Source of the DNA: Simkania sp. | Lineage (GTDB): Bacteria; Chlamydiota; Chlamydiia; Chlamydiales; Simkaniaceae | Length of the DNA stretch: 64,000 nt | NCBI GenBank assembly: GCA_027942475.1 | Contig: JAQFVP010000001.1 | Coordinates: 13,962 to 77,961, forward strand | Direction: 5' to 3' | In this document: positions 26,787-36,556 of the stretch, piece by piece | Position numbering within the stretch: the stretch's first letter is position 1 | How the letters are laid out: each line of letters opens with the position of its first letter | Notes under the pieces: model-generated | The model's input: the letters and a program-made list of their open reading frames with translations, nothing else | Told to the model about the DNA's origin: nothing | The model's database searches: none | Translations under genes and position numbers: made by a program

Positions 26787-27530
26787 GTGAATAAGAAGAG
26801 GATCCTTCTGATCGAAGATGAAGAGGACATTGCCACACTGATTAAATTGCAAGCTGATCTTTCAGAGTATAAATTGTACGTTGAAGTGGACGGAATTAAC
26901 GGGTACCGAGCGGTTCAAAGGGAAAAACCGGATCTAGTTATTCTCGACGTGATGATTCCAGCCCTTAACGGTCTGGACGTTTGTCGTAAAATCAAAAGTG
27001 ATCCGGAGCTGAGTAATATCCCCATCGTGATTCTCAGTGCAAAAAACGAAGAAATCGATATGATCCTCGGATTAGAACTAGGAGCTGACGATTATGTAGC
27101 CAAGCCTTTTTCCCCCAAGGTTCTCTTTTCCAAAGTCAAAGCGATTCTCCGAAGAAATCGAGAGTTTGAGAGAGCCCCCCGGGTGAGCTCTTTTGGGGAT
27201 TTTGTGCTCGATATTGACCGCTATTTGCTGAAAAAAAATAACCAAAGGATTACGATGACTCTATCGGAGTTTGGTATTTTGAAACAGCTTTTGCTCCAAC
27301 GGGGTAAAGTTCTCACGAGAAATCAGCTCATAGAAAACATCCAAAATGACGACGCCTTTATTGTGGACCGCAACATCGACGTGCATATTGCATCCATTCG
27401 GAAAAAGCTAGGACCTAACTTTTATTGGATAGAAACAGTGAGGGGGGTAGGGTATCGGCTGCAAGATGAGGGGCAAACTATTTATAAAAATGCGCGCGAA
27501 CCCTCTCTCTCTTTGGAAGACTCTGGATGA
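26787..27530 (+). CDS. OmpR/PhoB-type response regulator
   Basis: Receiver domain (ILLIEDEEDI, DLVILDVMIP, KPF) plus a winged-helix output domain (...ETVRGVGYRL). GTG at 26787 is preceded by aggaaagag. There is an unusual ~20-aa C-terminal tail, and the stop lies in repeat A1. Confidence 0.85.
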   Translation: MNKKRILLIEDEEDIATLIKLQADLSEYKLYVEVDGINGYRAVQREKPDLVILDVMIPALNGLDVCRKIKSDPELSNIPIVILSAKNEEIDMILGLELGADDYVAKPFSPKVLFSKVKAILRRNREFERAPRVSSFGDFVLDIDRYLLKKNNQRITMTLSEFGILKQLLLQRGKVLTRNQLIENIQNDDAFIVDRNIDVHIASIRKKLGPNFYWIETVRGVGYRLQDEGQTIYKNAREPSLSLEDSG

Positions 27531-27757
27531 GAGCGCGCCCGCTTAAGGGGTGGGATGACAGCTCGCCTTGCTATCAAAACTTGCTTACTTTAAATATTAT
27601 AATCTCCTTTTGATATCATACCCAGTATGAAGAAAAGAAAAGCGTTTGTGTTCAGACTTAGGTCTACTAAAAAACAAAAGAGCCTTCTTTTCTCCCATTG
27701 ATTAAGGAAGAAAGATCCTCCCTAGAAGCCTTCCCCTTTGGGGGAGAGAGTAGTCAC
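27522..27757 (+). mobile_element. family A miniature IS200/IS605-like (TnpB-type) element, copy A1
   Basis: Shares with A2 and A3 the left end (ctggatga...cccgcttaaggggtgggatgaMagctcgcc...atcatacccagtATGaagaaa) and with A2 the right end (cctagaagc-hairpin-gRgagtagtcac). Encodes only MKKRKAFVFRLRSTKKQKSLL. Confidence 0.6.
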
Positions 27758-27846
27758 TTGCATCTTCAAATGGCGCTGAAGGTATTGTAAAAAAAAATAT
27801 AATTTGATATTTTTAGATCCTTTTAAAAAAATAACCCGGAGGATCT

Positions 27847-28476
27847 ATGTCTGCTATAAATGAGAGTTCCACGAACTATCTGGAGCCACATAAAGCAAAT
27901 CTTGTAATGAATCCACCTCAATCGCCTGCAATACAAAAGGAAGAATCAGACCCCCCGCATAGCACCGAAGAAACAGATTTGGCGTGGACAGTTGCCTCAT
28001 ATGCGCGCTCTTTTTTCTACTTTTTACTAGTCACAATTCCGATGACATGTTGTTGGCTATTAAAGCAAGTAATTCTTTTACCCATTTCCCTTGGGTTTCG
28101 CATCATGAAACTTGCAACGCTCCCTTTTTGGGTGAGTACTGTATGGGAATACGAGACAAAACTAAAAGAGCTTAAGCTGTGCAAACATCGAAACCAAGAA
28201 CTCGAGCAAAATTGCTTGGAAATGGGTAATAAACTAAACAAAGCAGCCGATTCTGCAAAGCTCTCTGAAAATCGAGAAAAGGCACTACTTAATGAAATCA
28301 AACAACTTCGGAGTGACTCCAGAGTTCTATTGGCTCGAATCCTGAGTCATGATGCTAACTTAATGTTAGAGTCAAGATACCTCAAATCATTAAACGCTAA
28401 TAAGAAATTGGGTGAAGACTTAGACACGGATTGTTTGGAATCTCAAAAATTAATAGATGCTGCCGATGCATCTTAA
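27847..28476 (+). CDS. IncA-like candidate inclusion-membrane protein (bilobed hydrophobic domain plus coiled coil)
   Basis: Good SD (ggagg) 5 nt upstream. Hydrophobic hairpin FFYFLLVTIPMTCCWLLKQVILLPISLGFRIM, then ~120 aa of heptad-rich coiled coil. Confidence 0.6.
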   Translation: MSAINESSTNYLEPHKANLVMNPPQSPAIQKEESDPPHSTEETDLAWTVASYARSFFYFLLVTIPMTCCWLLKQVILLPISLGFRIMKLATLPFWVSTVWEYETKLKELKLCKHRNQELEQNCLEMGNKLNKAADSAKLSENREKALLNEIKQLRSDSRVLLARILSHDANLMLESRYLKSLNANKKLGEDLDTDCLESQKLIDAADAS

Positions 28477-28546
28477 AAAAGCAGTATAATCTTTTTCTGG
28501 CTCGCGCGACTTCTTGCTCATTCTAGAGAAATGTTGTTAAAACTCC

Positions 28547-29010
28547 TGAAAACACGCGGCATTCCCATCCCGTTAAGGGGATTGGGTCAAGAGCGTGATA
28601 AGAAGATTCCCTACAAAAGCAAGTCGTGAGTGAGGTGTCTTGACCAAAAAGATAGTCAGGATGCTCAGGTGCAATTTCTTACCTATATCCCTTTTTGGTC
28701 GTTTGCATTTTCTGTTTTTCATGCAGAGGACTTTGTTACACAGGCAACAGACGAAAATTGCTAAAAATCTCTCTTAAGGGAAAGCTCTTCCCGTTATAAG
28801 CACAAATAGGGGTGTAGTACCTTTTTTTAAAAAAGCTGTGCGCTTTGTGCATGGAACAATGGATGGGAAGTCCCCTGGCTTTAACCATGGAGTTTAGGAG
28901 CGCTTGATTGATGTGCATAACCTAATCATGATTGCGACAAAAGTAGCTTAAGGATTAACATTCTCAAGCTTGGGCTTAGGCGTTAAGCTTCGATCGAGTA
29001 GTCCCTAGCT
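28547..29010 (+). mobile_element. family B element remnant, copy B2 (left end certain, remainder decayed)
   Basis: 28547-28612 is near-identical to 21246-21311. Downstream plus-strand frames hold broken TnpB C-terminal-like pieces (C..C..C...C, ...TDEN-AKNLS around 28700-28775). A gagtag-containing hairpin (gagtagtccctagctactc) lies at ~28996-29014. Confidence 0.45.
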
Positions 29011-29066
29011 ACTCTTACGTAAGTCCCTAGTCTTTAGACGTGGGGAGGTTCAATGGATGTGGTTTT

Positions 29067-35092: not shown

Positions 35093-36311
35093 TCGCATCA
35101 TGTGGTTTTTGAAACGTCAGAACAAATTTTGTCCCTCTCCCTTCTTTTGAAAAGACCTCGATTTTCCCCCCGTGTTTTTTGACAATTGTTTGCACAATAG
35201 AAAGACCGAGCCCAGCACCACCAAATTTCCTCGAATGGGCTTTATTGACCGTATAAAATCGCTCAAAGATATGATCTAGGTCATCTATTGGAATCCCCTT
35301 CCCCTTGTCTGCTACGCTCAAACAAGCGGAATCTGAGCGATCTTGGATCGTAATTGTGAGATCTACAGGGGCAAGGGAATATTTGGCTCCATTTTCTAAA
35401 AGATTCATCAGAGCGTGTTCAATCAGGTGGGGATCTGCGGGAATGGAGATAACCTCTTTATTGCGCAGGGCGCGGATATTGGTATCGGGATACACTCTCA
35501 ACAAATTGTAAATGCAATTGTCGACCAGGGTAACGAGGTCGCACTCTTGTAGATGGGCCTTGGGCAGATAATCCAGCTCTGTCAGCGTGAGGAGATTGGT
35601 CACCAGATGATCCATTCGTTGACAATTGCGAATGATTTTTTCTGTGGAGTCCCGAATTAGGGTGTTTGAAGATATCTGAGGAAGCTCATGGAGTGCTTCG
35701 GCAAACCCTTTGATAATAGTGATGGGTGTGCGCAGCTCGTGTGAGGCATTTGCGACAAAATCTTTTCCCAGTCGGTGTTTTTGGTACTGGGGGGAGCTGT
35801 CTCGGATAAAAATGAGGTATTGAGTCGGGTTTTGTATCGGTTTGACATCGAGATCGAGCGATTTTTTGCTCTCCTTTTCCAGACAAAAAGAAAGAGATTG
35901 TTCCACATTTGTAGCTTGACATTGTTTGAAGAGTTTATGACATGTTTTGATCAGAGGCAAGTGCGTAAAATTGCTGAGCTCTTCTCCTAATAGCTTGGAT
36001 TGGGAAAGTTTAAGAGATTTTTCCGCTTTTCGATTGAAATAGAGGATGACCCCTTTATTACTAAGCAAGACGATCCCTTCTGATAGAGCTTCAAAAATGC
36101 GATGATCTTGCTTTCTTATGAGCCCTTCTTTGAGAGAGAAGAGCGTAAATTTTGCCCGCAAAAAAATAAAGATAATCGAAAAAGTAAAGAGGAAAACGCT
36201 GAGAAAACGGCTCCAGTCTTCACATTTGCTTTGTCTCGTGAGGCAAAAACAAAAAAAAATCAGATTGAGTAAAAGGATGAGGGGGATGAGAGTTTTTTTG
36301 GCATAAAACAT
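35073..36311 (-). CDS. PhoR-like sensor histidine kinase
   Basis: Two N-terminal TM helices, a PAS-like segment, the HisKA box SHELRTPITIIKGF, and HATPase N/G boxes (LLENGAKYS, DKGKGI, GGAGLGLSIV). Confidence 0.85.
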   Translation of the reverse strand: MFYAKKTLIPLILLLNLIFFCFCLTRQSKCEDWSRFLSVFLFTFSIIFIFLRAKFTLFSLKEGLIRKQDHRIFEALSEGIVLLSNKGVILYFNRKAEKSLKLSQSKLLGEELSNFTHLPLIKTCHKLFKQCQATNVEQSLSFCLEKESKKSLDLDVKPIQNPTQYLIFIRDSSPQYQKHRLGKDFVANASHELRTPITIIKGFAEALHELPQISSNTLIRDSTEKIIRNCQRMDHLVTNLLTLTELDYLPKAHLQECDLVTLVDNCIYNLLRVYPDTNIRALRNKEVISIPADPHLIEHALMNLLENGAKYSLAPVDLTITIQDRSDSACLSVADKGKGIPIDDLDHIFERFYTVNKAHSRKFGGAGLGLSIVQTIVKKHGGKIEVFSKEGRGTKFVLTFQKPHDASNYSLS

Positions 36312-36312
36312 T

Positions 36313-36345
36313 AGCCGAGCCTAGCAAACCTCTTAGAGGCGATGG
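36313..36345 (+). repeat. weak right-end-like remnant of family A
   Basis: tagcaaacct...ttagaggcgatgg resembles tagcaaacctagaagctctcgcctttaggcgaggg of A2 with an internal deletion. Similarity is short. Confidence 0.25.
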
Positions 36346-36401
36346 AACGGGCCGGGCATACGAGAGGCCCACATCGAAACCAGTGAAAAAACCTTAAATG
36401 A

Positions 36402-36475
36402 TGAGGCTTGTTGGATTCGAACCAACGACCCTCTCCTTAAAAGGGAGATGCTCTAACCAGCTGAGCTAAAGCCCC
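36402..36475 (-). tRNA. tRNA-Lys (anticodon UUU)
   Basis: Manual cloverleaf: acceptor GGGGCTT/AAGCCTC, D stem GCTC/GAGC, anticodon stem TCTCC/GGAGA with loop CTTTTAA, T arm GTTGG-TTCGAAT-CCAAC. No encoded CCA. Confidence 0.9.
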
Positions 36476-36481
36476 AAATGA

Positions 36482-36556
36482 TGACCCCAAGGGGATTCGA
36501 ACCCCTGTTGCCAGAATGAAAATCTGGTGTCCTGGACCGGGCTAGACGATGGGGCC
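36482..36556 (-). tRNA. tRNA-Glu (anticodon UUC)
   Basis: Manual cloverleaf: acceptor GGCCCCA/TGGGGTC, anticodon stem CCAGA/TCTGG with loop TTTTCAT, T arm AGGGG-TTCGAAT-CCCCT. Confidence 0.9.

Follow-up and report, generated by a model that had tools for sequence, protein, structure and literature searches.

Old rearrangements and decayed IS200/IS605-family copies around a PhoB-like regulator and a PhoR-like kinase of Simkania sp.

A 64,000-nt stretch of DNA from Simkania sp. (contig JAQFVP010000001.1; hereafter the window, to which all coordinates without another locus name refer) carries a gene for an OmpR/PhoB-type response regulator and, 7.5 kb away on the opposite strand, a gene for a PhoR-like histidine kinase. 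Our analysis indicates that the interval between them most probably arose through several old rearrangements of a Simkaniaceae-like chlamydial genome, with decayed copies of IS200/IS605-family insertion sequence (IS) elements at several of its joints, and that it is not a broken operon. The PhoB-like regulator has left the position that it holds across the phylum and now adjoins mutL, and none of the relatives examined, about 160 loci from several families, has regulator and kinase linked. The main value of these data is a correction: an earlier, sequence-only reading of the same DNA had described an insertion hot spot that broke up an ancestral regulator-kinase operon, and this account is wrong, the OPT/pseudopilin/kinase neighbourhood being conserved core. 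The interval also documents, on a small scale, how remnants of IS200/IS605 elements mark breaks of synteny in the genome of an environmental chlamydia; one of these remnants rewrites the 3' end (stop codon and tail) of a highly conserved transcription factor.

Regulator and kinase are not neighbours in related genomes

Gene calls were taken from the listing of open reading frames (ORFs) together with Pfam searches. Both confirmed the regulator and the kinase at the positions reported in the sequence-only reading, and as the only two-component genes in the window:

26787-27530, + strand: OmpR/PhoB-type response regulator, GTG start (Pfam Response_reg 5.6e-23, Trans_reg_C 1.8e-20)
35073-36311, - strand: PhoR-like PAS-HisKA-HATPase_c histidine kinase (HisKA 3.2e-16, HATPase_c 2.5e-29, PAS)

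The regulator is 74-87% identical to its orthologues in Simkaniaceae, Rhabdochlamydiaceae, Parachlamydiales and Waddliaceae, and the phospho-acceptor Asp in the motif LVILDVM is invariant in the alignment. Orthologues of the kinase are 46-76% identical, the closest (76%) being that of the related locus L007.

Linkage was examined in 80 loci from species-representative genomes, for which up to 10 kb was fetched on each side of the regulator and neighbours were scored by tblastn, and in 80 more loci from a metagenome scan, a few of which duplicate genome loci; for 76 of the pooled 160, each of the two flanks measures 5 kb or more. No kinase-like gene was found near the regulator in any of the 80 genome loci or the 80 metagenome loci, and the 1.95 Mb of pooled flanking sequence yielded no kinase match at E <= 1e-3. 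In four relatives with both genes on a shared contig, the distances computed from the record ranges are ~43 kb (ENA k141_1668754), 33 kb (CP073763), 26 kb (JAJFMJ010000036) and 42 kb (CAMGYI010000002). This spacing of 26-43 kb is fairly constant, so that a loose synteny also holds between the two conserved neighbourhoods; the 7.5 kb of the window is the shortest distance seen. Since regulator and kinase are not neighbours in any relative examined, no operon has been broken here, and the synteny comparison suggested along with the sequence-only reading thus found the pair adjacent in none.

The regulator has left its phylum-wide locus

The home of the regulator (RR) across the phylum is tolQ-tolR-x-tolB-pal-LysM-RR-MFS-GlyZipper-TPR. 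Three orthologue contexts read sdh-tatD-tolQ-tolR-x-tolB-pal-LysM-RR-MFS-GlyZipper-TPR337-TPR945-VWA, and among the 80 genome loci the genes found near the regulator include TPR336 (62 loci), LysM (57), pal (55), GlyZipper (49) and MFS (37). In the window these old neighbours remain elsewhere, tolQ...LysM at 8318-12742 and VWA, TPR953, TPR336 and GlyZipper, inverted, at 13289-23296, while the regulator itself stands beside mutL.

The same relocation is found in L090, the locus with the closest regulator (87% identity). L090 shares the derived order TPR953-TPR336-GlyZipper-pepP-mutL, all on the minus strand and followed by the regulator on the plus strand. As the mutL-RR order is common to the window and L090, the move of the regulator predates the split of the two lineages (age of REARRANGEMENT). 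IS copies flank the regulator in both: in L090 the mutL-RR spacer holds a more complete element of this family, with its left end at ~8945 and its right end at ~9738, and a second one, in which tnpB starts at 10888, follows RR with an OrfB_IS605 fragment and a right end at 11953. The L090 regulator has no kinase within 10 kb.

Three further observations concern this locus. The L090 elements at 8943-9738 and 10888-11953 stand in the same orientation on either side of the regulator, so that a move of an IS-RR-IS unit is possible. At what is the regulator's junction in relatives, the LysM gene of the window (12107-12742) and an ORF for an RsmD-like methyltransferase (Cons_hypoth95, 12678-13292) are convergent and overlap by 65 nt. 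The VWA-TPR953 spacer (16922-18117) measures 1.2 kb here versus ~20 bp in the related loci L004 and L005; its first 165 nt match L090, and it also holds a 109-aa ORF without a Pfam match.

The kinase belongs to an ancestral block

Besides the two-component genes, the interval and its flanks contain the following:

23615-24700, - strand: pepP, flank gene
24675-26429, - strand: mutL, flank gene
27847-28476, + strand: orf209, no Pfam family; two-lobed hydrophobic segment, then a coiled-coil-like tail
29040-30383, + strand: fusion of IspD and a short-chain dehydrogenase, CDP-ribitol-synthase-like (Pfam IspD 5.7e-48, adh_short 5.3e-30)
30570-31031, + strand: orf153, prepilin-like N-terminus; first gene of the orf153-OPT-orf189-orf338/kinase block
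31497-33365, + strand: OPT transporter (Pfam OPT 2.3e-95)
33465-34034, + strand: orf189, prepilin-like N-terminus with a weak N_methyl motif
34036-35052, + strand: orf338, in the block convergent with the kinase
36400-36556, - strand: tRNA-Lys(UUU) and tRNA-Glu(UUC)

Downstream of the tRNA pair come frr, pyrH, tsf and rpsB, then tRNA-Gly (39598-39668), glgC and a HEAT-repeat gene. This inventory bears out the sequence-only reading for the CDP-ribitol-synthase-like gene, the OPT transporter, the 338-aa ORF and the two pseudopilin-like genes (by Pfam and by their prepilin-like N-termini), as well as for the flanks, pepP-mutL on one side and the tRNA pair with frr-pyrH-tsf-rpsB on the other. The division of these genes into accessory cassettes, the third made up of OPT, orf189 and orf338 and the fourth of the kinase, finds no support in relatives. 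The loci L006, L008, L170 and L171 read mutL-pepP-guanylate cyclase-(crcB-DUF190)-...-kinase, and the kinase faces, in convergent orientation, a 283-307-aa ORF, a 174-195-aa prepilin-like ORF, OPT and a 156-175-aa ORF; beyond the latter lie a 328-aa ORF, a metallophosphatase and glgC, followed in L006 and L008 also by HEAT and lipA. By tblastn, the block ORFs of L006 and L008 are homologous to orf338, OPT and orf153, a homologue of orf189 being detected in L006 only. The homologues of orf153 stand next to OPT (L006 51%, L008 35%), and L170 and L171 have ORFs of matching size and position. The third and fourth "cassettes" thus form, with orf153, a single ancestral block: orf153-OPT-orf189-orf338 and the convergent kinase are ancestral core, not accessory DNA, and the repeat in the orf153-OPT spacer (A2, below) is a mere insertion.

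Base composition gives the same picture. The G+C content runs from 0.39 to 0.48 through the interval and from 0.33 to 0.49 across 20-42 kb, with the lowest values in spacers and similar values in the flanking coding blocks, so that the comparison of cassettes with flanks proposed along with the earlier reading returned a uniform composition and no foreign cassettes. No integrase domain was found by Pfam in the ORFs of the interval, and no att-like repeat, the sole tRNA-like repeat being that of tRNA-Lys versus tRNA-Glu.

The constant convergence of the kinase with two prepilin-like ORFs, an OPT transporter and an ORF of ~300 aa without a Pfam family is an observation in its own right; the PhoR-like kinase may be functionally linked to a peptide transporter or to a module of pseudopilin type. 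The gene formerly called IncA-like, orf209, has no Pfam match and no homologue among 5.8 billion proteins, in which the sole match was orf209 itself; it is an orphan ORF, Inc-like by topology only.

Decayed copies of IS200/IS605-family elements

Repeats of two related families, A and B, were recognised in the window, together with partial copies:

~27519-27760, + strand: A1; left-end hairpin, first ~24 codons of tnpB, right-end hairpin
31088-31487, + strand: A2; left end, ~55 codons of frameshifted tnpB, right end; in the orf153-OPT spacer
39748-39940, - strand (inverted copy): A3; between tRNA-Gly and glgC, 96% identical to A2 over 104 nt
21246-21599, + strand: B1; between two TPR genes, left end 95% identical to that of B2
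~28547-29053, + strand: B2; second, related IS200/IS605-like non-autonomous element
26623-26764, + strand: right-end remnant, ending 22 nt upstream of the regulator's GTG start
62240-62292, + strand: isolated right-end copy, far outside the interval (nhmmer E = 4.5e-11)
35079-35094, + strand: marginal right-end-like 16-mer overlapping the last codons of the kinase

A1, A2 and B2 are internally deleted, non-autonomous copies of IS200/IS605-family elements. Copies of the A family retain both end hairpins and, of tnpB, the first 20-55 codons, and the B family is a related one with its own hairpin ends. A1 and A2 share one layout, in which the left end contains a GC-rich hairpin of 7 bp and is followed by an ATG with tnpB codons, the right-end hairpin and then GGGAGTAGTCAC. 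The A2 reading frame, FVFRLRPTIKQKRLLQEQ..., matches HTH_OrfB_IS605 at 22.2 bits (Pfam cut-off 21), and longer homologous elements match OrfB_IS605 at 51.5 bits in L007 and 33.2 bits in L090 (cut-off 30.5). Compensatory changes across copies affect 3 of the 8 pairs of the right-end hairpin and 4 of the 13 predicted pairs of the left-end hairpin. The left 66 nt of B2 are 95% identical to 21246-21311 and contain a hairpin of the left-end type; its right end (28927-29053, 127 nt) is 75% identical to L090 14159-14277. The remnant upstream of the regulator (26623-26762) shows 74-75% identity to repeats of L090 and L007.

An nhmmer search with the right-end profile returned 26715-26764 (E = 2.8e-12), 27711-27760, 31437-31487 (5.9e-15) and 62240-62292, all at <= 5e-11, followed by 21555-21599 (E = 0.007) and 1156-1175 (E = 0.047). 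With copies at 21246-21599, 62240-62292 and 1156-1175 and with A3, the family is therefore dispersed and not specific to the interval. Direct reading of the flanks of A1 and A2 revealed no direct repeat across the element, that is, no target-site duplication. With the left end read from ATCCTGGA, the 5' flanks end in AATA (A2), CTTT (A3), GTTT (L007), TGTT (L090) and AGAC (A1), from few copies and with a boundary uncertain by 1-2 nt. Pfam revealed no Y1 (HUH) transposase TnpA among the ORFs of the interval. An Rfam E-value scan of 20-42 kb for an IS605-associated RNA gave tRNAs only; an RNA of this kind could exist without being represented in Rfam. A literature search for IS605 in Simkania or Chlamydiae found nothing.

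Of the five remnants in the sequence-only reading, three stand (27522-27757, our A1; 31089-31486, A2; and 28547-~29010, B2); these do lie between regulator and kinase, but the copies at 26623-26764 and 62 kb, A3 and B1 had been missed, as had the one at 1156-1175. The other two, 35062-35092 and 36313-36345, had been placed at the ends of the kinase gene, the former as the source of its last ~8 codons and stop, the latter as a weak remnant 2 nt from its start codon. At the former, only 16 nt (35079-35094) match, to the terminal 16 nt of the right end and at E = 1.1; a 12-mer with one mismatch, as found there, is expected ~0.3 times per window by our own estimate. The latter was rejected as noise, as neither blastn nor nhmmer gave a match. 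Similarity to the L007 kinase gene ends at GATGCGA, exactly where the right-end-like 16-mer starts. The coincidence is suggestive, but the 16-mer match itself is at chance level, and we retain it as no more than a possible remnant.

An IS-derived stop codon in the regulator gene

The C-terminus of the regulator is 11-18 residues longer than those of nine aligned orthologues, and 18 residues longer than that of the closest, which ends ...KDNG; the window regulator reads ...QDEG there and then continues QTIYKNAREPSLSLEDSG. The left end of the element starts at about ATCCTGGAYGAG in A2, A3 and the L007 copy, and A1 has CTCTGGATGAG at the same place. As A1 aligns with these left ends, the last codons and stop of the regulator (TCT GGA TGA) lie inside the element, in keeping with the earlier placement of the stop codon in the first bases of this repeat. 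That orthologues might share the C-terminal tails had been named as a possible refutation of a repeat origin: those of the regulator lack the extra residues, and the tail of the kinase, after a conserved F-x-K, is variable in all orthologues. When the DNA that follows orthologous regulator genes was searched for the source of the 18-aa tail, alignment scores stayed at shuffle level. Insertion of A1, or a later deletion, may have fused the 3' end of the regulator gene to the left end of the element, and such a fusion would have given the regulator its lineage-specific 18-aa tail and IS-derived stop codon.

A promoter-like sequence, TTGACT-16-TAAAAT (10/12), is present at 26648-26675, within the IS-derived remnant upstream of the regulator. 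In a scan of this upstream region, promoter-like sites did not exceed shuffle expectation.

Repeats and rearranged junctions

From sdh (6.1 kb) to lipA (43.3 kb), 31 of 32 gene junctions could be scored and were classed as conserved in an outgroup or novel. Repeats are present at 4 of 8 novel junctions (mutL|RR, RR|orf209, orf209|IspD and tRNA-Gly|glgC) and at 2 of 23 conserved ones (one-sided Fisher p = 0.026; p = 0.053 when the marginal match at the kinase end is counted).

A second line of evidence is the locus L007, whose IspD-short-chain dehydrogenase orthologue is 76% identical to that of the window. L007 shares IspD-orf153 and kinase-tRNA-Lys-tRNA-Glu-frr-pyrH-tsf-rpsB-tRNA-Gly, and the kinase/tRNA-Lys junction of the window is common to L007 only. 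Relative to IspD-orf153, the whole segment OPT...tRNA-Gly is inverted in L007, where kinase and orf338 are also separated by an additional 3.5 kb that contains an IS605 remnant. The inverted pair formed by A2 (31088-31229) and A3 (39796-39940), with 104 nt at 96% and 145 nt at 92% identity, brackets this 8.6-kb segment (L007 5604-6596 and 17042-19228), the endpoints falling within tens of bases of A2 and A3.

These data suggest that dispersed IS copies may have served as substrates for homologous recombination leading to inversions and translocations, of which the A2/A3 pair would be an example. Rearrangement brought regulator and kinase closer together and did not part them; the 7.5-kb spacing would be a by-product, and not the wreck of an operon. 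Of the insertion or recombination hot spot described in the sequence-only reading, a weaker form thus survives in the junction counts and in the bracketing of the L007-inverted segment by A2 and A3, without the broken operon.

Several points weigh against this account. Half of the novel junctions (LysM|rsmD-like, GlyZipper|pepP, IspD|orf153 and kinase|tRNA-Lys) are without a detectable repeat, and the breakpoint test carries a bias, in that insertions would not survive in the tight operonic spacers that make up many of the conserved junctions. An A-family copy was looked for at either inversion junction of L007 and none was found; recombination between A2 and A3 is therefore a reasonable mechanism for the inversion, inferred and not demonstrated. 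In the window and the relatives' loci read, neither an intact IS nor TnpA was seen. The partnership of regulator and kinase is assumed, from their co-occurrence on the same contigs and a published phyletic pattern, and the support from an independent assembly described below covers neither 27641-31426 nor 38393-39961.

Alternative explanations

In the strongest alternative, which nonetheless seems to us unlikely, the regulator was the passenger of a composite IS605 unit, TnpA having used the left end of the upstream copy and the right end of the downstream copy, so that IS-RR-IS was "peeled" out of the tol-pal locus and "pasted" in beside mutL. IS200/IS605 elements excise precisely, the regulator is gone from its ancestral locus, the L090 regulator lies between two same-orientation copies of the family, and in the window a right-end remnant stands upstream of the regulator and A1 downstream. 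However, the neighbouring MFS gene is missing as well and the adjoining GlyZipper-TPR-VWA segment is inverted, so the old regulator locus underwent larger events. No TnpA was found in the window or in the loci read, the window does not have the intact outer ends that such a unit should possess, and the carriage of a passenger gene by two IS605 copies is not established as a mechanism of transposition. An extended version, in which a pair of IS605 elements captured and relocated the chlamydial PhoB, a master regulator found across the phylum, giving it a new upstream region, C-terminal tail and IS-derived stop, and later rearrangements drew it towards its presumed kinase, we regard as decidedly improbable; if it were true, capture and approach would be an early step in the re-linking of an unlinked two-component pair.

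That short-read contigs were misjoined at repeats into a false mosaic is very unlikely. The window probably comes from a metagenome-assembled genome, A2 and A3 are 96% identical inverted copies, and two independent Logan contigs from the same organism (SRR21998750) break exactly at repeats, ending inside A1 (27641) and A2 (31426). Yet these contigs match 21570-27641 and 31426-38393 at 100% identity, reproducing mutL|RR|A1 and OPT...kinase|tRNA|frr in an independent assembly, so that the joins are supported, and the repeats are shown to be multi-copy in the genome. In addition, mutL|RR is common to L090, IspD|orf153 and kinase|tRNA are common to L007, and orf153|OPT across A2 is the ancestral adjacency of L006 and L008, which a chimeric join is unlikely to recreate.

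Although phoB-phoR operons are the norm in most bacteria, the only two-component genes of the window are this regulator and kinase, and repeats do stand between them, we give almost no credence to an ancestral operon whose members were pushed 7.5 kb apart by insertions or recombination at a tRNA-linked hot spot, given a kinase near the regulator in 0 of 160 related loci, the 26-43 kb between the genes in four relatives, the regulator's conserved neighbours (tol-pal, GlyZipper, TPR) elsewhere in the window at 8318-12742 and 18118-23296, the ancestral neighbours of the kinase, and L090, which has the relocation of the regulator yet no kinase within 10 kb.

Rearrangement of the region with IS copies at several joints remains our preferred explanation. 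Taken as a whole, this is ordinary IS-associated shuffling of core genes, which opens no long-standing question.

Other features of the window

A metallophosphatase gene at 2591-3334 lies 37 kb from glgC, which it adjoins in relatives; this distance is a further sign of rearrangement across the whole window, beyond the interval. At 56700-61900, direct repeats of 100-300 nt with 71-79% identity occur within and between three minus-strand ORFs (565, 248 and 746 aa), which look like paralogous genes with shared modules.

Comparison with known systems

Non-autonomous IS200/IS605 derivatives, termed palindrome-associated transposable elements and resembling miniature inverted-repeat transposable elements, have been described for Haloquadratum (PMC3119063). 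Like these, the elements of the window have no terminal inverted repeats, no target duplication and subterminal hairpins at both ends, their interior is deleted down to the 5' end of tnpB, and they occur as multiple dispersed intergenic copies. Unlike the Haloquadratum elements, they reside in a chlamydial host, fall into two sub-families (A and B) and include several copies that consist of the right end alone, and neither an intact parent element nor TnpA was seen in the sequences read here.

With systems in which IS copies recombine, the window shares repeats at synteny breakpoints and a 96% inverted pair around a segment whose orientation differs in L007; it departs from them in that L007 is without copies at the junctions and the event is inferred, not observed. 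The interval resembles a tRNA-linked genomic island in adjoining tRNA genes and in carrying lineage-restricted genes (orf209 and the IspD-short-chain dehydrogenase gene), but this identification was rejected: it has no integrase, no duplicated tRNA end and no compositional shift, and is mostly ancestral core.

As in a phoB-phoR operon, one protein combines a receiver and a winged-helix domain with the phospho-acceptor Asp and the other HisKA and HATPase_c, but the genes are adjacent neither in the window nor in relatives. In Waddlia chondrophila, a chlamydial PhoB ~80% conserved across non-Chlamydiaceae families and a PhoR-like kinase (Wcw_1870) with the same phyletic pattern have been reported (de Barsy et al. 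2016, PMC4989314). The pair of the window is like this one: the regulator retains the phospho-acceptor Asp and shows ~75-87% identity between non-Chlamydiaceae families, and a PAS-HisKA kinase is present in the same genomes, the two genes being adjacent in no locus examined here. Unlike the chlamydial PhoB/PhoR pair elsewhere, the regulator of the window stands outside the tol-pal...MFS context, has an IS-derived stop codon and an extra tail of 18 aa, and lies 7.5 kb from the kinase, as against 26-43 kb.

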